A stretch of DNA of 30,962 nt, taken from the UHGV virus genome UHGV-1558343; one strand, written 5' to 3'. The DNA is from a virus. The position numbers were made by a program, and so were the translations under genes. Below, piece by piece: positions 5,381 to 29,682 of this stretch. How positions within the stretch are numbered: the first letter of the stretch is position 1; every line of letters begins with the position of its first letter. Under the pieces are notes generated by a model. It had not been told where the DNA came from. It saw only the letters and a program-made list of their open reading frames with translations, and searched no databases.

Positions 5381-6982
5381 TCAACGTCTAAGCCCCTCAT
5401 ATGGGTTTCCTCTCACTAAGTCTGTGTGAGCACCCATTGATGGTGGCTTGAATAATTTAACTTCGTTAAGACTGTTGAAAGCATCACTGGTAGCATCCAC
5501 TTGGTCATCTTTAGTTTTGCCATCACCACAAAAGCCTTCAAGCTCTTGAAAGTAAGCTTCATTCCAACTACCTCTCAAGACTTTTACAAGTCCAGCTTCA
5601 GAAGCAGCAGAAAATCCCGCAAAGCGGGTAACTTTATCTTTATTTGTTGGTTTAGCTCTTGCACGATAGCCTTTCTCGGCAAGTTTCCTGATGAGGGATG
5701 TTGCGTAGGATTTACCAGCAGCGCCTGGGTCTTGAGGGATAAAAATACCAGTTCGCTTACCGTCACTTTCAGCAGTCAAATTAATTTGTGTTTCGACTCC
5801 AGAGGGTCTATCTCTAAATCTTACTACATCAATGATATAATAGCAACCGTCTTTTTTAGATTTACCCATCTTAACACCTGCTGTCCAGTCTGGATTAGGG
5901 TTAACCTCAGATGGTAAAGTTGCTGCTAAGTCCCATGCTCTAACATCAAATACATCTTCTGGGAGTGAATCAACAATTTCACACCATTGTCTTTGCCAAT
6001 AGTTTGAACCTTCTGCACGAGCCTTCCAGTTACCGAAACGAAGTCTTGCAACGTTTACAGGAGTGTTGTTTTCAAGCTTACCGCGATACTTTGGCTCTAA
6101 GAAGTCAAGAATTGGGTTATCATCAATCGTACCAGAGATGAAGGTGTATGTTTGAGGAATCTCAAGAGGGAACATTTCAAGAATCTTGTCTCTCTCCCAA
6201 TCAGAAACCATCACACCATCATTCATTACATACCAACGAATACGACCACACTTTTCAGGGTCTGGGTAACCTTCTTCATCTAAGAATGGTTCTACCCAAT
6301 CGTAAATAAAGTGGTCTCTGTCTGGGTTCATGGAAATCTTCATGTATGAATCACCTTCAGCACCAGAACGTAGACGGGTTTGTAGGTATGAAATCTGTGA
6401 AGCAGAGAAGTGTGTACCTTCGTCAAAGTAAATAGCTGAGTATTCAATACCCTGATGACCTTCAGCGTGCTTTTCAAGCTCTAGGTAGGTAAACTTGATA
6501 GTTGCCCCAGAAGGGAATGTGATAGTCATTTTCTGCTCGTGAGGAATCCCACCAAACTTACCAAATAGTTTCTTTGCAGCAGGCCATAAACCACCTTGTA
6601 ACTGTGTTGTATTTCGACGGAAATATACAGCATTATAGTTAGGGTCTTCAATAAATCTTAAAGAGTCCATTAACAATGCAGCAGTTTTACCAGCACCAGC
6701 AGCACCACCATAAAGAACCAAGTCAGCATTAGTATTTAAAAAGACCTCTTGAGAACCCGGCTGAGGGGCTACATAGTTCTTATCAGTCATCAATTTAAAG
6801 ATGAGGCGAACTTGGTCTGGTGTGTATCTTAATAAAGTCAGAATTTGAGTTGGAAGGAATTTAGAGGGGTCTTTACCGAATGATTTAATAATTTCTTTTA
6901 CTTCATCAGAAAGCCCCAACTCTCCAGCTAGGACTTTCCTAACATCTTCCACTCGCTTCTGCTTAACAGCATTTAAGTCCAT
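5381..6982 (-). CDS. terminase large subunit
   Basis: Walker A motif GGAAGAGKT in N-terminal ATPase region; about 533 aa; ORF track starts at TTG (6997), ATG at 6980-6982 with GGAGG SD is the likelier start. Confidence 0.85.
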   Translation of the reverse strand: MDLNAVKQKRVEDVRKVLAGELGLSDEVKEIIKSFGKDPSKFLPTQILTLLRYTPDQVRLIFKLMTDKNYVAPQPGSQEVFLNTNADLVLYGGAAGAGKTAALLMDSLRFIEDPNYNAVYFRRNTTQLQGGLWPAAKKLFGKFGGIPHEQKMTITFPSGATIKFTYLELEKHAEGHQGIEYSAIYFDEGTHFSASQISYLQTRLRSGAEGDSYMKISMNPDRDHFIYDWVEPFLDEEGYPDPEKCGRIRWYVMNDGVMVSDWERDKILEMFPLEIPQTYTFISGTIDDNPILDFLEPKYRGKLENNTPVNVARLRFGNWKARAEGSNYWQRQWCEIVDSLPEDVFDVRAWDLAATLPSEVNPNPDWTAGVKMGKSKKDGCYYIIDVVRFRDRPSGVETQINLTAESDGKRTGIFIPQDPGAAGKSYATSLIRKLAEKGYRARAKPTNKDKVTRFAGFSAASEAGLVKVLRGSWNEAYFQELEGFCGDGKTKDDQVDATSDAFNSLNEVKLFKPPSMGAHTDLVRGNPYEGLRR

Positions 6983-7003
6983 TAAGCGCCTCCGCAAATA
7001 GAA

Positions 7004-7204
7004 TTATTCAGAGTCTGTAGCAGTCTCTTCTTTCTTAACTTCGAACTTTGCATCAACAGCATCAAGAAGTGCATCCATAGATGCTTCTTTAATATCAATA
7101 CCTGTTGCTACAGATAATCTATCTGCAATTGCCATGATAGTATTCTGCATAAACTCTAACTTCTTGTTAGCTTCATAAAGTTCTTTATAAACGTTCTCGC
7201 TCAT
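7004..7204 (-). CDS. hypothetical small protein upstream of terminase (packaging accessory or small terminase candidate)
   Basis: 66 aa ORF immediately upstream of the terminase large subunit gene; no recognisable motif. Confidence 0.4.
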   Translation of the reverse strand: MSENVYKELYEANKKLEFMQNTIMAIADRLSVATGIDIKEASMDALLDAVDAKFEVKKEETATDSE

Positions 7205-22001: not shown

Positions 22002-22682
22002 ATGAAGAATCTTACGGGACACCTTCGCAGGATGAATTGGATGAACTTGAAAGATATGGTTCTCCTTCGGAAGAAGAAAAAGATTCATTTTGCTGAGTTG
22101 TCAAAAATCACTAAGAAGTATTTTCAGGATTTGATAGATATGGAAAAACAGTTTGAATTAGAGAGAAAGTACTTGGTACTTGACTGGAATGATGTTCAAG
22201 AAGCATTATCCAAAGAAAGCCTTAACAGACTAGAGCAGCTTATCTTATCAGTACGGCATATCAGAGAAGTTAAGAATGGTAAAGAGCCACTAAAAGGTAT
22301 CTTTGTTAAGGAGTCTTATCCGTTCTATAAAGATACTTTGCAGAAACTTGAAATGTATGTTAAACAGCAGAACCGTAAAGTGGTCACTATGGTATCTCTT
22401 GGTGGACAGAGTATGTCTGTGATGGAAGATATCAACCCTAAGAGACCGAGTAAAGGCGTTTGTATAAAAATCACAGGACATGAAGAGTATATCTCAGTTG
22501 ATGACTTTAGAGCATTCTGTAGTGGTTCTTGTGTCTTTAATGGTTTTCACTATGATATCCGAGTGTACCCAATCAAGGGAGATGATATCATGATGCAGGT
22601 ATTTGATAACAACAATGGCTTTACTCATTTTTATCAGACAACCAAGTCATCACTAAAAACAGTTCTGGAAACACTGATTTAA
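22002..22682 (+). CDS. hypothetical protein
   Basis: 226 aa ORF, last gene of the plus-strand operon. Confidence 0.55.
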   Translation: MKNLTGHLRRMNWMNLKDMVLLRKKKKIHFAELSKITKKYFQDLIDMEKQFELERKYLVLDWNDVQEALSKESLNRLEQLILSVRHIREVKNGKEPLKGIFVKESYPFYKDTLQKLEMYVKQQNRKVVTMVSLGGQSMSVMEDINPKRPSKGVCIKITGHEEYISVDDFRAFCSGSCVFNGFHYDIRVYPIKGDDIMMQVFDNNNGFTHFYQTTKSSLKTVLETLI

Positions 22683-22692
22683 AATATCTTAA

Positions 22693-22721
22693 GAGCCTCC
22701 TTAATTGGGGGGCTTTTTATT
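22693..22721 (+). terminator. rho-independent terminator ending the plus-strand operon
   Basis: GAGCCTCC ... GGGGGGCT stem followed by TTTTTATT. Confidence 0.7.
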
Positions 22722-23354
22722 GAGTAAAATTTACGAAATTTATATTTTTTTATAAAATTTTATCGGTTGTCCCAACCTCTGGGTCACCATCATATGTGAA
22801 CAAAATATCTATCCTTCTTAACAACCTTCTTAATCTTACTCTCTATATATAGTTATATAGTACTATATAGTATCTTAGTAACTATCTAGTGGTCTTAATA
22901 GCCCCTCTGTATAACCCTTCTAACTAGCCCTCTAACAAGCCTTCTAAACACTCTTCTAACAAGCCTTCTTAACAACCTATACAATCACCTTAACCATCCC
23001 TCTACACCCTCTTAGAAGCTCCTATACATCTCTTAATCTCTAGGTTACCTATGATACCCTCTATAGGTGTTCACTAGGTATTACTAAACCTCTATATAGA
23101 CTGTTTTAACAAACTTAACAGGGATATCTTTACAGACCTTATTTCACAAGGTCTAACACGGTACTAACAAGGTATCTTATAAGCCTGTTTCTACCTGTAT
23201 TTTTAAAAGACTGTATAGGTAATTATTCAGAATCTTAAAATTTTTATAAAATAGGACTATCAAGTCATTTTTTAGGGTCTTTGAAGGAACTGAAAAATAT
23301 CTGTCTAGTTGATTCGGTAGAATCTACCTCATGATGTATATCTGCTTGGTAGCC

Positions 23355-23632
23355 CTTAACAGCCCCTTAACACCCCCTTTGCAAAATTTTAAAATATCCT
23401 TAACAATCTCTTAACAGTTCTCACATCTTCTTAACAACTCTTCAAAGGTCTTAACAGATTCTTAACAGAACTAACAAGGCTGTAACAGTTTCTTAACAGT
23501 TGATACATAGTCTTTACAGATGCTTAACAGATGACTAACAAGAGCTAACAAGTTAATTTTTAAGAGTTATTTTGTTAAGATAATTAACAAGTTTCTAACA
23601 AGTGTTTAATCTTTTTAACAAGCTATTAACAT
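23355..23632. repeat. periodic array of at least 17 degenerate TCTTAACAG / CTAACAAG units spaced 10-11 bp
   Basis: runs such as tcttaacagat tcttaacagaa ctaacaaggc tgtaacagtt tcttaacagt; spacing equals one helical turn. Confidence 0.8.
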
Positions 23633-23882
23633 GGTCACTACTTCTTTCTTATCGTTCCCTTTCCTTTCTTAATTGGTATTGTTATGAGGATGCTTCATCC
23701 GAATCATCTACCAATCCCTAGTGATTCTCTAAATAGCCCTCTTAAAAGCTCTCTATAGCTCTTTATAGTCTCTTTTAAGCCTCTTCCTAGTATCTACCCC
23801 CAACTGTACAGATAGCTCTTTATAGGGCTTTACAGGAGCTTTTAAGGCTATGTCAAAGGTTCTTACAAGGCTTTTACGTGGT

Positions 23883-23990
23883 CTTAACAGAGGTTTAACA
23901 AGGGGCTAACAAGTTGCTAACAAGTGCCTTAAAAGCATAACTGTGTAGGGTTTGTTAAGAAATTGTTAAGAAAATGTTAAGGGGGCTAGA
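23883..23990. repeat. second TTAACA(A/G) cluster with inverted-orientation copies
   Basis: cttaacagaggtttaacaaggggctaacaagttgctaacaag followed by gttaagaaattgttaagaaaatgttaag (reverse orientation). Confidence 0.7.
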
Positions 23991-24360
23991 ATTTACGTAA
24001 CTTTTAAGCTACTTTTACGTAACTTTGAAGTAACTTTATAGCCCCTATAACATGCTTTTTAGTGACTAGCAAGGGGGTTGTTTAACCATTCACAAGATAC
24101 TAACCAGCCTATAAGCTTACACCCTTATAAGATTCTTTTAAGTCTCTATAAAGCCCTGTAAAGAGCTTTTTAAGATAGGTTAATGCAATCCCTTAAGTTA
24201 GGTTGATAAGGCTGTTATAGAGCGTTATAGAGCGTTTTAGGGGTTGCCCTTCCCTTTCGGGTTATGGGCTTATATTTAAGTTGATTTGATAAGAGGTTAT
24301 AGAGTAAGCTATAGAGTTATTGCTCTAAATGTCTGGTAAGAGCCTAGAAAGGGATTGTAT

Positions 24361-24390
24361 AGACGTTAAAAAGCCCCATTGAAGGGGCTT
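24361..24390 (-). terminator. hairpin followed by short U-run downstream of the last small minus-strand gene
   Basis: AAGCCCC-ATTGAA-GGGGCTT stem-loop; minus-strand transcript continues TTTAACG. Confidence 0.5.
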
Positions 24391-24443
24391 GTATAGGTTC
24401 TGGGGCTATTTGCCCGTTGCGGCGTCTTGTTAATCAAATAACT

Positions 24444-24620
24444 TTCTTGTAAGACTTGCCGGAAATGATGTAGTTAGTAACTGAATGATTTAACAAGTCT
24501 GTACCAGTGATGACTACCATTTCTTCATTTTTCTTTTCTTCATGCTCTTTTTTCATTTCTTCCCAACGTTTAGCACCAAATTTTGCAACCATACGCTGTT
24601 CAAAATTCATCTTTCAAGTC
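24444..24620 (-). CDS. hypothetical small protein (58 aa)
   Basis: ATG at 24618-24620 right after a type A cassette; translates MNFEQRMVAKFGAKRWEEMKKEHEEKKNEE...; below ORF-track size cutoff. Confidence 0.5.
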
Positions 24621-24726
24621 TCCAGTTTAGGAAGTAGTTTAAGGGCTTTATTTAGTGGGGAAGGTCATTCCCTCCCCGTTGATTAGTAATTTACTTGTTT
24701 TGATAGCTGATTGCAAGTAATTTTTT
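24621..24726 (-). promoter_or_regulatory. type A promoter/stem-loop/RBS cassette
   Basis: minus strand: TTGCAA -35 (24721-24726), 17 bp, TAAATT -10 (24698-24703), GC-rich hairpin GGGGAGGGAATGACCTTCCCC, GGAG SD, ATG. Confidence 0.7.
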
Positions 24727-24845
24727 GAGCTTATCTATAAAGAATCTTTTAAGTGAATCCCTTTTAGATAAACCCCCTCGAACAAAGTTACCAATGTCAA
24801 GGGGTATTGTCAACACTTTTTTAAAAGTTTTTTGTAAGTTATTGA

Positions 24846-25260: not shown

Positions 25261-25380
25261 TTTCTTTAAATGCAGTTTTTCTGCTTTTTTCATGGTTTTT
25301 ACTAGTAACATCATGACAAATGAGAAAATCATCTCTGAGAATACAGGGTTGTTAAAAACTGTCTCAATAGTATGCGTCAT
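25234..25380 (-). CDS. hypothetical small hydrophobic protein (48 aa)
   Basis: ATG at 25378-25380 after a type A cassette; translates MTHTIETVFNNPVFSEMIFSFVMMLLVKTMKK...; hand-translated, below ORF-track cutoff. Confidence 0.4.
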   Translation of the reverse strand: MTHTIETVFNNPVFSEMIFSFVMMLLVKTMKKAEKLHLKKKSIVNRFK

Positions 25381-25475
25381 CTTTTTGAATCTCCTAGTTT
25401 AAGGACTTTATTTAGTGGGAAGGTCATCACCTCCCCGTTGATTAGTAATTTACAGACTTTTATCAGGTTTGTCTA
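25381..25475 (-). promoter_or_regulatory. type A promoter/stem-loop/RBS cassette
   Basis: minus strand: TAGACA -35 (25470-25475), 17 bp, TAAATT -10 (25447-25452), hairpin GGGGAGGTGATGACCTTCCC, GGAG SD. Confidence 0.7.
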
Positions 25476-26398: not shown

Positions 26399-26602
26399 TT
26401 ATTTGTTATTTTTGACAACTTTTAAAACTGCACGGTAACCTAAGCAATAGGAATCACCGAAGAGCGACCGGCCCATGAAGGAGTCTTCTGTAATATCTTT
26501 CGCCGTGACGGTTTTTTCTACGCCGTGAAAGAGAACTATATCACCAACTTTAATATCTTTGATGTGAGTTGTTTCAATGTGTAAGCCGTTGATAATAGCC
26601 AT
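26399..26602 (-). CDS. hypothetical small protein
   Basis: 67 aa, ATG directly after a type A cassette. Confidence 0.55.
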   Translation of the reverse strand: MAIINGLHIETTHIKDIKVGDIVLFHGVEKTVTAKDITEDSFMGRSLFGDSYCLGYRAVLKVVKNNK

Positions 26603-26694
26603 TTTTAGAATCTCCAGTTTAGGACTTTATTTAGTGGGGAGGTTATCGCCTCCCCGTTGATGTGTAATTTAACCTATCTAAAAATCAGTGTCAA
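26603..26694 (-). promoter_or_regulatory. type A promoter/stem-loop/RBS cassette
   Basis: minus strand: TTGACA -35 (26689-26694), 17 bp, TAAATT -10 (26666-26671), hairpin GGGGAGGCGATAACCTCCCC, GGAG SD. Confidence 0.75.
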
Positions 26695-27194: not shown

Positions 27195-27467
27195 TTATGC
27201 TAAATGCAGCTTTTTACCTTTTACCATGATGTAACTTGTTGCGCTATTGCTGTATACATCTTGATAAATTCTGCGCAAACGGCCTTCGTAGTATACTTTC
27301 CAGCTAGTTGGAATCTTTTTCCCGTATCCTGTAACAGTTTTTTGGAGTCCTGCAAGTTGCCAATCCAAGATGTGTTGCTCAGCTTGTAAATCTTCAAAGT
27401 GCATCACACCATTCACATAGTGACGTAGGGTTACGTTTAAAGTGCGACCGTTGTTAGTAGCATACAT
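27195..27467 (-). CDS. hypothetical protein
   Basis: 90 aa, ATG after a type A cassette. Confidence 0.6.
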   Translation of the reverse strand: MYATNNGRTLNVTLRHYVNGVMHFEDLQAEQHILDWQLAGLQKTVTGYGKKIPTSWKVYYEGRLRRIYQDVYSNSATSYIMVKGKKLHLA

Positions 27468-27559
27468 TTTTGAATCTCCAGTTTAGGACTTTATTTAGTG
27501 GGGAAGGTCATTCCCTCCCCGTTGATGTGTAATTTAGCCTATCTAAAAATCAGTGTCAA
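27468..27559 (-). promoter_or_regulatory. type A promoter/stem-loop/RBS cassette
   Basis: minus strand: TTGACA -35 (27554-27559, overlapping upstream stop codon), 17 bp, TAAATT -10, hairpin GGGGAGGGAATGACCTTCCCC, GGAG SD. Confidence 0.75.
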
Positions 27560-28266: not shown

Positions 28267-28779
28267 TTAGTTCTTAAAGATATTCATCACTGAGTCTTTT
28301 AATGATTCCAAACGCTCTAATACTTCAGATTCTGCGTCTGAGTTGTTCACTTCTTCTTTTAGTCTGTCATCTAAGTCATCGCCGTCACTATAGCACCAAT
28401 CAAAAGCGTAACCAATATAAAAACTGTCTAAAATTGTTTGACCATTTGCATCGACAACTTTCGCGGCAAGGTTGTATTCTGAAGCCTCTAAATCTCTTTC
28501 CAATTCTTTCTGTAAGCTAATGTAAGCCTCTTTTGATGGATTTTCCCGGCCCTGTTTTGCATAGTCACTTGAAAGCTGTTTAAGGCTGTAATGCAAAGGG
28601 ATTGCATATTTAAAATCGTTACGCTGACAGTTAGGGTTTTTAACAGTCACGCCGCCTTGATGGTTATCTGTAAACTTCCAATTATCAAGATTATGGCTTG
28701 CTTCGTAGCAATTCACAGCTTCATAAATAATAGTGAATTTTTCTTTTACAACTTCAAAGGTAGCGTCTACAGTTTTCAT
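28267..28779 (-). CDS. hypothetical acidic protein
   Basis: 170 aa with Asp/Glu-rich C-terminus (DGDDLDDRLKEEVNNSDAESEVLERLE); preceded by a type B cassette. Confidence 0.6.
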   Translation of the reverse strand: MKTVDATFEVVKEKFTIIYEAVNCYEASHNLDNWKFTDNHQGGVTVKNPNCQRNDFKYAIPLHYSLKQLSSDYAKQGRENPSKEAYISLQKELERDLEASEYNLAAKVVDANGQTILDSFYIGYAFDWCYSDGDDLDDRLKEEVNNSDAESEVLERLESLKDSVMNIFKN

Positions 28780-28869
28780 TTTTTGAATCTCCTAGTTTAA
28801 GGTTAGTTAGTAAAGCTCTTTATCTGGGGCTTACTTTATCGAACTATAAGCCCCTTGTAAAGTACTTTA
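28780..28869 (-). promoter_or_regulatory. type B cassette
   Basis: GGGGCTTA - 13 nt - TAAGCCCC hairpin plus conserved RBS segment. Confidence 0.65.
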
Positions 28870-29212: not shown

Positions 29213-29593
29213 TTATTTAATTTTGAAGATTGTTACATAACCATCGCTCCCGATGATTTGCGATACCCCAGCTTTTTCTACTTTATAGCCCATATTTTCA
29301 AGATGATAAACAGTATCATCATAACCATATGCGCCACCCTGATAACGTCTCTTATCGCATTTTATCAGGTTTTTACCACGTCCAGCAAGTGCATGTAAAA
29401 TGGCTTTTTCACTTGAAAGAGTACCATCTAACATGGTTGCCGTGTAATGGTTGATTCTATTTCCGTTTACATCATACTTAAAATTGAATGCGTGAACAAC
29501 AATAATGTTACCTTTAAAATTTTCATCAAGTGACTTCTCCAGTGCGTTGCGAAAGTTGTCTTTGTTGATGAATTTAGGTGCACGATAAGCCAT
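29213..29593 (-). CDS. hypothetical protein
   Basis: 126 aa, ATG after a type B cassette. Confidence 0.6.
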   Translation of the reverse strand: MAYRAPKFINKDNFRNALEKSLDENFKGNIIVVHAFNFKYDVNGNRINHYTATMLDGTLSSEKAILHALAGRGKNLIKCDKRRYQGGAYGYDDTVYHLENMGYKVEKAGVSQIIGSDGYVTIFKIK

Positions 29594-29682
29594 TTTTGAA
29601 TCTCCTAGTTTAAGGTTAATGTGGTAAAGCTCTTTATCTGGGGCTTAAGATATCAACTTTTAAGCCCCTTGTAAAGTACTTT
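29594..29682 (-). promoter_or_regulatory. type B cassette
   Basis: GGGGCTTAA - loop - TTAAGCCCC hairpin, near-identical to 26314-26398. Confidence 0.65.

Follow-up and report, generated by a model that had tools for sequence, protein, structure and literature searches.

In phages T7 and T3, the concatemer junction reportedly consists of a 160-bp repeat with arrays of short repeats. In the T7 sequence, which we checked, ACCTAAAG units spaced 13 nt apart lie just inside the 160-bp repeat and on both sides of it. To our knowledge, the role of these flanking arrays is unsettled, and even in T7 the way in which short terminal repeats arise has yet to be clarified. During T7 maturation, the phage's own RNA polymerase pauses at the junction (PMC3276506). 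Terminal repeats have also been described in the Ounavirinae. The direct terminal repeat (DTR) of UAB_Phi87, 608 bp long, was determined by Bal31 digestion and run-off sequencing (PMC4837284), and a T7-like DTR of 439 bp has been published for Kolesnikvirus SPARTY. Terminal repeats have likewise been published for Pr103Blw, H12, Fifi106, and Fifi318, as have PhageTerm end-mapping results for relatives. The terminal-repeat identity of the region described below is already known for its genus.

The DNA analyzed here is a stretch of 30,962 nt, UHGV-1558343, referred to as the window; all coordinates are those of the whole stretch. The phage is a Felixounavirus (Felix O1 type), and 257 phage records match it, nearly all from Felixounavirus or its relatives, a group that serves in the typing and biocontrol of Salmonella and Escherichia coli. 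A sequence-only reading of the window had singled out an ORF-free region of helically phased repeats between convergent terminators. The lack of genes is real. The stretch from 22683 to 24845 contains no ORF as long as 60 aa. Because a 58-aa ORF occupies 24434 to 24610 on the minus strand, the strictly gene-free span is 22683 to 24433 (1,751 nt), in which the longest ORF is 39 aa (cutoff, 20 aa) and no plausible gene is found. The terminators are present too. A rho-independent terminator at 22693 to 22721 on the plus strand (stem at 22696 to 22712 plus a T run) ends the rightward gene block, and a minus-strand terminator at 24361 to 24390 (hairpin at about 24366 to 24385, read by eye) ends the leftward one. 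ASO1A has an annotated terminator at the place homologous to the first, and ASO1A and Mijalis both have one at the place homologous to the second. What did not stand was their convergent placement, an artifact of reading a linear genome as circular: each of the two is the final terminator that transcription meets ahead of a physical end, right or left. On the strength of sequence comparison, we consider it likely that the region is the concatemer junction of a Felixounavirus myovirus with short direct terminal repeats of the T7 class. The gene-free 1.7 kb and its facing terminators would then be simply where a linear genome begins and ends, and the apparent anomaly is removed.

Where exactly are these ends? 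The window carries one copy of the repeat, and the end positions for UHGV-1558343 are taken from the determined ends of homologous relatives. By homology to the 581-bp DTR of Pr103Blw and to the feature labeled "DTR" in UAB_69, which corresponds to 23346 to 23988, the repeat spans 23348 to 23986 (639 bp). Base 1 of Pr103Blw maps to 23986 and its last base to 23348, and its two 581-bp ends, annotated as DTRs, are 100% identical. The ends of NBEco005 lie at the same places as those of Pr103Blw, with 651 bp that are 100% identical at the two ends. The H12 record opens at 23986/23987 and that of pEP20 at 23348, and about 10 of the 60 sampled records of relatives begin or stop exactly at a repeat edge. 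Erwinia phage vEam_W_25 has a 401-bp DTR, 100% identical at the two record ends; its end maps to 23349 and, as here, is 29 nt from TTTGCAAAAT. The repeat is found at both virion ends in the homologues Pr103Blw, NBEco005, and vEam_W_25, and the ends are fixed and nonpermuted, with independent records starting or stopping at 23348 and 23986 to within 2 nt. More broadly, the Ounavirinae DTRs (UAB_Phi87, Pr103Blw, UAB_69, and SPARTY) are homologous in sequence to the repeat described here, share its edges to within 2 nt, and occupy the same place in the gene order. The edges given by PhageTerm and by run-off sequencing differ by 2 nt, which may reflect staggered cuts. Annotators thereby gain exact end coordinates for the window, by homology.

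The two edges have distinct sequences. The left cut site lies within the box CATGATGTATATCTGCTT/GGTAGCC (the slash marks the cut) at 23330 to 23354 on the plus strand, giving, by homology, a mature left end at 23348 (±2). At the other edge, three inverted TTGTTAAGAAATTGTTAAGAAAATGTTAAGGGGGC units on the minus strand (23951 to 23986) end at the right cut site, with the mature right end at 23986 (±2), again by homology. Read inward, the right end is GCCCCCTTAACA-N5-TTAACA-N5-TTAACA. TTAACA units adjoin both repeat edges, inverted relative to each other. The box at the right cut is kept in Felixounavirus, Mooglevirus, and Suspvirus but differs in Kolesnikvirus; conservation of the edge sequence is thus not universal.

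Short repeats fill the region. On the plus strand, TAACA(A/G) occurs 26 times in 22726 to 24370 and 26 times in the remaining 29.3 kb (15.8 versus 0.9 per kb), a density about 17 times that of the rest of the window, and CTTAACA is present in 13 copies where 0.4 would be expected. Base autocorrelation is maximal at lag 11 (z of 9.5 relative to other windows of the same 1,645-nt length), and echoes of this peak appear at lags 21 to 22 and 31 to 32. Tandem Repeats Finder and a second repeat search recovered all of the subarrays named in the sequence-only reading. Two further arrays came to light, consisting of 10-bp CTCTTTATAG units at 23738 to 23785 and four 11-bp TTTACGTAACT units at 23992 to 24037. 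The right-end unique noncoding flank (22683 to 23347) contains TATATAG units (22844 to 22890), 12-bp TCTAACAAGCCC units (22916 to 22975), and scattered TAACA units. Within the repeat, the main array of 11-bp CTTAACAG units (23353 to 23632) is followed in mid-repeat by 10-bp CTCTTTATAG, CTTTACAG, and CTTTTAAG units (23738 to 23850, plus strand). Next come four direct copies of TAACAAG at 11-bp spacing (23885 to 23924, plus strand), seen in both the repeat searches and the phasing analysis, and three inverted TTGTTAAGAAA units (23952 to 23981). The left-end unique noncoding flank (23987 to 24433) contains the TTTACGTAACT array, CTATAAAG/CTGTAAAG units (about 24145 to 24175), and GTTATAGAGC units (24214 to 24240 and 24296).

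The main array deserves a closer description. It consists of 17 (C)TTAACA(G/A) units on the plus strand, at 23357 to 23632, that read inward from the left end. Exactly 17 TAACA units fall at 23357 to 23627, and their best period of 10.3 bp puts them on one helical face. That the units share one face had been proposed from their spacing, and a Rayleigh test of the 17 bears this out (R of 0.82 versus a null of 0.53 ± 0.08), with none of 2,000 random spacings as good. The TTAACA hexamers are under selective conservation. Hexamer positions are 97.8% conserved and spacers 88.6% (P = 3e-8) in a region that is 90 to 97% conserved overall among relatives; third codon positions of neighboring genes are 48 to 87% conserved, and the hexamers match first and second codon positions. 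Those of the main array are invariant even in the Erwinia phages. Relatives differ by insertions and deletions mostly of 11 or 22 nt and rarely of a multiple of 3; for 17 of 26, the length deviates by no more than 1.5 nt from a multiple of 10.7 nt. An invariant 22-nt block, CTTTGCAAAATTTTAAAATATC, with the palindrome TTTGCAAA inside it, occupies 23377 to 23398 on the plus strand, 29 nt inward of the left end. One exact copy per repeat is present in all four of the Ounavirinae genera compared, and the block also occurs in 19 IMG/VR stretches (source contigs of 51 to 94 kb, mostly 81 to 94 kb). As a 22-nt marker (CTTTGCAAAATNTTAANATATC) 29 nt from the left end across the Ounavirinae, it could help in orienting assemblies, which are often opened at an arbitrary point.

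How general is this arrangement? Across the complete genome of Pr103Blw, the only peaks of TTAACA density and of 11-bp periodicity fall within about 1 kb of either end. The same layout is seen in four Ounavirinae genera, represented by Felix O1, SUSP2, Mijalis, and phiEa104, although their sequences can barely be aligned. The phased TTAACA sites are a conserved detail of the genome ends, and any function for them is putative. The papers on Ounavirinae DTRs that we read or searched for give only lengths and positions, and we found in them no description of the phased TTAACA arrays, the inverted arrangement at the edges, or the invariant TTTGCAAA block. Among 12 genomes, conservation of the right-end flank is 92 to 100%, higher than that of third codon positions in neighboring genes. 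Outside the repeat, the flanks show the same degree of conservation as the repeat itself, which suggests that the region probably encodes other functions as well.

The likeness to T7 extends to several features. Both have a short, exact repeat and a 7- to 8-nt unit regularly spaced beside and within it (ACCTAAAG in T7), and the replication gene set is T7-like, as judged from the annotation of Pr103Blw (primase/helicase, DNA polymerase, exonuclease, and ligase). There are differences, too. In T7, a single strand carries all of the units, at 13-nt intervals, whereas here the spacing is 10 to 11 nt and helically phased, most units lie within the repeat, and those at its far edge are inverted. Unlike T7, Felixounavirus has no T7-type RNA polymerase, and the terminases differ, the large subunit here having a T4-type N-terminal domain. 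Other phages use repeated elements as terminase recognition sites, such as the pac hexamers that flank the cut in P1, pacL and pacR of SPP1, and the R sites of lambda cosB. In these, as here, several short elements flank the cleavage site; in those phages, an oligomeric small terminase binds the elements. P1, SPP1, and lambda, however, package by the headful or cohesive-end route, their small subunits are identified, and their elements are far fewer, while at the present locus two cut sites are separated by 639 bp and we could recognize no small subunit.

The large terminase subunit is encoded at 5381 to 6997 on the minus strand (phrog_979, E value of 8e-234; Pfam Terminase_6N and Terminase_6C). 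Its gene is 16 kb from the repeat, whose edges the enzyme would be expected to cut, and clustering of the large terminase in a Felix O1-like DTR group has been reported (PMC4837284). No small terminase was recognizable near the large subunit gene or the ends, and no gene for a DNA-binding partner of the arrays was found, in searches with PHROGs and Pfam and in the Pharokka annotation of H12. A 66-aa ORF upstream of the large subunit gene (7004 to 7204, minus strand) encodes an acidic, unassigned product.

What might the arrays do? Most likely they are assembly or recognition sites for the machinery that cuts and packages the ends. Replicating DNA would contain a single 639-bp copy of the repeat between the right-end and left-end flanks. 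Virion DNA would start at 23348, run rightward around the genome, and end at 23986, leaving a repeat at both ends. The 17 inward units at the left edge, the 3 inverted, inward-reading units at the right edge, and the TTTGCAAA block could form a one-faced platform for cooperative binding by the terminase, with a putative small subunit, or by some other factor that recognizes the ends. The bound protein would position strand cuts at CTGCTT/GGTAGCC and AAGGGGGC/TAG; strand-displacement synthesis could then duplicate the repeat, followed by packaging, as proposed for T7. Protein binding, the identity of the binder, and the chemistry of cutting and duplication are what we infer here. Hexamer conservation, phasing, and inverted placement offer concrete mutational targets for repeat recognition, cutting, and duplication.

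A more specific version of this scheme is possible, if rather unlikely. The hexamers and the TTTGCAAA block might nucleate a one-faced filament or wrapped complex of a small phage protein at both edges, and this complex, not the edge sequences, would measure off and license two staggered nicks about 400 to 650 bp apart; it might also protect the entering end or load RNA polymerase. If true, the Ounavirinae would become a tractable model for the making of short terminal repeats.

The arrays might instead be coated by an end protein other than the terminase, serving in exonuclease protection, in synapsis of the repeats to form concatemers, or as a signal for spooling or ejection. We think this unlikely, yet several observations suit it. 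Both mature ends read inward as G(C)nTTAACA-N5-TTAACA, the arrays are about 280 bp long, far longer than most terminase recognition sites, and the Felixounavirus Bas63 is reported to lack a RecBCD inhibitor. Against it, no candidate protein was found, and sequence alone cannot separate such coating from terminase binding.

The sequence-only reading had favored an origin or a partition- or packaging-type site, and of these the packaging-type part stands, in that the region comprises the virion ends and the DTR by homology. Could the phased hexamers also be iterons, binding an initiator that melts a nearby AT-rich stretch, possibly in addition to their terminal role? Iteron origins, such as those of the P1, F, and pSC101 plasmids and lambda ori, similarly have direct repeats about one turn apart on one DNA face. 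Many phased short direct repeats occur in our region, as do AT-rich stretches at 22720 to 22760 (90% AT) and 23200 to 23280 (75 to 80% AT), and in T7 a secondary origin lies close to the left end. Iterons, however, are usually 17 to 22 bp long, present in 3 to 7 copies, and located beside an initiator gene, DnaA boxes, and an AT-rich unwinding element. Consensus sites for DnaA, IHF, and Fis were not found in the region, and no known domain was recognized in the flanking ORFs, none of which is initiator-like. GC skew in the complete genome of the relative Pr103Blw follows gene orientation only, turning with the transcription blocks at about 8, 40, and 50 kb, and is uninformative about an origin. 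The divergent DNA polymerase-primase/helicase junction of Pr103Blw, at about 50.3 to 50.5 kb, is a more conventional candidate, and units arranged in inverted symmetry around the edges of the repeat suit end recognition better than unidirectional melting. We regard an iteron-type origin as improbable, with no positive evidence for it in these data, though the region may have some origin role. The partition proposal is not supported either: the neighboring ORFs include no ParA/ParB or ParM/ParR genes (Pfam and PHROG), and the phage is virulent, with a linear genome.

Nor does DNA bending set the locus apart. A wedge model, the results of which are approximate, predicts no bend in the main array and, among the repeats, one only at the right repeat edge (z of -5). 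It also places bends at 22661 to 22800 and equally strong ones at ordinary intergenic sites, so intrinsic curvature is not a distinguishing property.

A transcriptional role is still less convincing, and we rate it as very doubtful. TTAACA matches the -35 hexamer at 5 of 6 positions, and the best promoter match in the region, a predicted sigma-70-like TTAACA-17-TAAAAT (10 of 12 positions) at 23367 to 23395 on the plus strand, faces inward 20 to 48 nt from the left end, with both hexamers kept in the Erwinia phages (counterpart, TTAACC-17-TAACAT). At the entering end it might serve as an early promoter, and the other units might dock RNA polymerase, for example to help pull in DNA, as the A1 to A3 promoters help to do in T7. 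Promoter-like matches, however, are not enriched (10 found versus 7.4 ± 2.7 in shuffled sequences), and, unusually for a promoter, the "spacer" TTTGCAAAAT is invariant as well. In addition, the transcript would run antisense to the first genes, and the downstream units lack matching -10 elements.

Slippage-prone satellite DNA without function, or a long noncoding RNA gene, is hardly credible: copy number does vary by whole units among relatives and tiny ORFs are called in some records, but the region is 90 to 97% conserved with hexamers like first and second codon positions, its architecture is retained in four genera, terminators face it from both sides, Rfam gives no match, and the array folds worse than shuffled sequences. 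The view that this is not a transcribed gene agrees with these last two results and with indels that are rarely multiples of 3. As separate candidates, a structured RNA was rejected on zero Rfam matches inside the region at E values of ≤1 and a fold z score of +1.78 for the array (less stable than shuffled), and coding by small ORFs was rejected on their maximum of 39 aa and on relatives' indels, which are rarely multiples of 3. Some GenBank records tag the region simply as "repeat_region," and others call tiny ORFs there.

Where does the DNA of this phage begin and end? The region at 22683-24433 matches 257 phage records at ~82-92% identity, nearly all of them Felixounavirus (Felix O1-like myoviruses). 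A more sensitive search adds Mooglevirus and Suspvirus matches, and in the Erwinia and Hafnia Kolesnikviruses the match is limited to a 127-nt piece (window 23335-23461). The same search shows that several relatives' records break within the region at two shared positions. The Escherichia phage Pr103Blw, annotated with 581-bp "short direct terminal repeats" at both ends, which were determined with PhageTerm (PMC8303462), aligns with its base 1 at window 23986 and its last base at 23348. NBEco005 has both ends as in Pr103Blw, with an exact duplication of 651 bp. The record of H12, classed by PhageTerm as having a direct terminal repeat (DTR) (PMC11737134), opens at 23986/23987, that of pEP20 opens at 23348, and a feature labeled "DTR" in the Salmonella phage UAB_69 corresponds to window 23346-23988. 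Among 60 records sampled across the match ranking, ~10 start or stop exactly at a repeat edge. Shared record edges at the repeat borders of an 87-kb genome cannot happen by chance. For UAB_Phi87, a 608-bp DTR was found by Bal31 digestion and sequencing run-off (PMC4837284).

Judged by this homology, the region is where the physical ends of the genome lie. It consists of a right-end unique flank (22683-23347), a terminal repeat of 639 bp (23348-23986, each edge being placed to within +/-2 nt by homology to the relatives' ends), and a left-end unique flank (23987-24433). Since the relatives' ends map to 23348 and 23986, virion DNA, in the window's + orientation, would start at 23348, run rightward, and finish at 23986. 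The edges differ symmetrically by 2 nt (23346-23348 and 23986-23988) between the PhageTerm-type records (GGTAGCC ... GGGGGC) and the UAB_69 "DTR" (TTGGTAGCC ... GGGGGCTA), an offset that could stem from the different methods or hint at cuts with a short stagger. The repeat is longer than those of Pr103Blw and UAB_Phi87 partly because of insertions in this phage. Insertions absent from most relatives are 49 nt midway through the terminal repeat (23670-23720), 24 nt just ahead of the left cut box (23305-23328), and 24 nt, made up of two 12-nt units, in the right flank (22919-22942).

An ORF scan of the window finds no ORF of >=60 aa between 22683 and 24845, in agreement with the sequence-only reading that this stretch is gene free. 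With a 20-aa cutoff, the longest ORF inside 22683-24433 is at most 39 aa, and the leftward genes begin with a 58-aa ORF at 24434-24610. Convergent terminators had also been described. Terminators are indeed present on both strands: a terminator search recovers the one on the + strand, and the - strand hairpin is seen in the sequence, its homologue being annotated as a terminator in relatives. Their convergence, however, comes from reading a linear genome as if circularized; they appear convergent because transcription of the genes on either side runs outward, toward the ends.

The motif TAACA(A/G) occurs on the + strand 26 times in 22726-24370 versus 26 times in the other 29.3 kb of the window (15.8 versus 0.9 per kb). 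The autocorrelation of bases is strongest at lag 11 (z 9.5) and rises again at lags 21-22 and 31-32. All of the sub-arrays previously named are recovered by repeat searches, which add 10-bp CTCTTTATAG units at 23738-23785 and four 11-bp TTTACGTAACT units at 23992-24037. In the main array of TTAACA-type hexamers (23357-23632), 17 TAACA units at 23357-23627 are spaced mostly by 11 nt and sometimes by 9, 10, 20, 31, 33, or 39 nt. Because they are jointly in phase at 10.3 bp (Rayleigh R 0.82 versus a null of 0.53 +/- 0.08, equaled by none of 2000 random spacings), they lie on one face of the helix, just as had been proposed. Intrinsic curvature, another property put forward for checking, is predicted as a bend at the right edge (z -5) but not in the main array, with approximate model parameters. 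Over the complete genome of Pr103Blw, maxima of TTAACA density and of 10-12-nt periodicity occur only in the outermost ~1 kb at either end. The terminal repeat starts on the left with GGTAGCCCTTAACAGCCCCTTAACA and finishes on the right with TGTTAAGAAATTGTTAAGAAAATGTTAAGGGGGC, reading inward from the right end as GCCCCCTTAACA-N5-TTAACA-N5-TTAACA; each mature end therefore carries one and the same motif, which points the same way with respect to the terminus.

How widely is this layout shared? It is common to Felix O1, SUSP2 (Suspvirus), Mijalis (Mooglevirus), and phiEa104 (Kolesnikvirus), and in each of these TTAACA is the commonest hexamer, the periodicity is ~11 nt, and the units are on the + strand at the repeat's left and on the - strand at its right edge. 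In the Erwinia phage vEam_W_25, the exact repeat is 401 bp, and its end aligns to window 23349, likewise 29 nt ahead of the invariant TTTGCAAAAT. This record (GenBank PP079183.1) closes, directly past the repeat, with the 9 bases AGATCGGAA (1992-2000 of the stretch examined), a tail that looks like residual Illumina adapter and marks a true physical DNA end. Across genera, the alignment is invariant in the TTAACA hexamers and in the block CTTTGCAAAAT-N-TTAA-N-ATATC, with variable spacers. Each repeat copy of every relative compared contains this 22-nt block once, and it is also found in 19 IMG/VR stretches, all from phage contigs of 51-94 kb (mostly 81-94 kb). The right edge box is kept in three genera and differs in Kolesnikvirus.

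In a 12-genome alignment, most of the noncoding stretch is 90-97% conserved, and hexamer positions of the main array reach 97.8% versus 88.6% for spacers (p 3e-8). Conservation in neighboring genes ranges over 48-87% at third codon positions and is mostly 85-99% at first and second positions, where one small gene falls lower. Among the 26 indels of >=4 nt, the lengths of 17 differ by no more than 1.5 nt from a whole-number multiple of 10.7 nt, with 11 or 22 nt accounting for eleven of them, and just 6 are divisible by 3. Whole units have thus been gained or lost, and the region does not encode protein. Over 22850-22874, the TATATAG units show 100% conservation across the 12 genomes. Part of the right-end flank (22750-22900), outside the terminal repeat, exceeds the neighboring genes in conservation, which points to an additional functional element in its own right.

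The best-supported reading is a concatemer junction of the T7 class. The T7 sequence, when checked, has a 160-bp terminal repeat with ACCTAAAG units inside, at least 12 further units, 13 nt apart, rightward of the left repeat copy, and additional copies to the left of the right repeat copy. Pr103Blw encodes a T7-like replication set (primase/helicase, DNA polymerase, exonuclease, and ligase), and the large terminase subunit, TerL, is encoded in the window (5381-6997, - strand). At each edge of the repeat, a phage factor would bind cooperatively along one face of the DNA through the phased hexamers; cuts would fall between CTGCTT and GGTAGCC and between AAGGGGGC and TAG; and strand displacement would copy the repeat, after which the DNA would be packaged. 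What might the binding factor be? PHROGs, Pfam, and the annotated relative yield no small terminase or other array binder. Directly upstream of the TerL gene is a 66-aa acidic, probably helical ORF (7004-7204, - strand; phrog_4397, function not assigned there). Because it adjoins TerL and a small subunit is neither annotated nor detectable in this phage group, it is a positional small-terminase candidate.

Just outside the left cut, ATATCTGCTT (23337-23347) resembles ATCTGTT, the T7 class II pause signal, which directly follows the T7 terminal repeat (T7 161-167). The box is also kept in Erwinia phages. The likeness is probably coincidental, since these phages have no T7-type RNA polymerase.

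Could the arrays serve something else? Sequence alone does not separate terminase binding from that of another end-binding protein. A conserved sigma-70-like match at 23367-23395 could act as a promoter, although even its "spacer" does not vary and includes the palindrome TTTGCAAA, making it more protein-site-like. The iteron origin, one of the options offered by the sequence-only reading, finds no positive support, though as an additional role it is conceivable, if unlikely: the region has no detectable DnaA, IHF, or Fis sites, no initiator gene was found nearby, and cumulative GC skew, a check suggested for it, tracks transcription only. Junk DNA or a noncoding RNA is contradicted by the conservation and by the Rfam and folding results.

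The region's identity is already known, in that the terminal repeat of the genus is published and annotated, though many records ignore it. In the literature on the genus, we found no account of the TTAACA arrays and their helical phasing, of the inverted arrangement of the units at the two repeat edges, or of the invariant 22-nt block. These features make it a well-defined new example of the T7-type "repeat plus flanking arrays" design, one of greater interest if the arrays prove to set the two cut sites.

Elsewhere, GATC is absent from the window (1-30962; 104 expected) and from the entire 88,421-bp Pr103Blw genome (297 expected), and the remaining 4-nt palindromes are about as frequent as expected. 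An absence of MboI/GATC sites was reported earlier for the genus (PMC5477317, PMC4690856). A 70-90-nt module recurs at least six times on the - strand between small leftward genes (24625-24710, 25372-25470, 26590-26680, 27455-27545, 28770-28860, and 29575-29665). In every copy, a G/C-rich hairpin (GGGGAGG...CCTCCCC or a variant) is followed by AAAGTCCTTAAACTAGGAGATTCAAAAAATG with a ribosome-binding site and start codon, and the copies are probably the 57- and 39-bp direct repeats reported between genes 15-21 of Felix O1. Predicted DNA bends overlap some of these module-bearing intergenic sites (e.g., ~24601-24641, 25381-25421, and 29641-29661).
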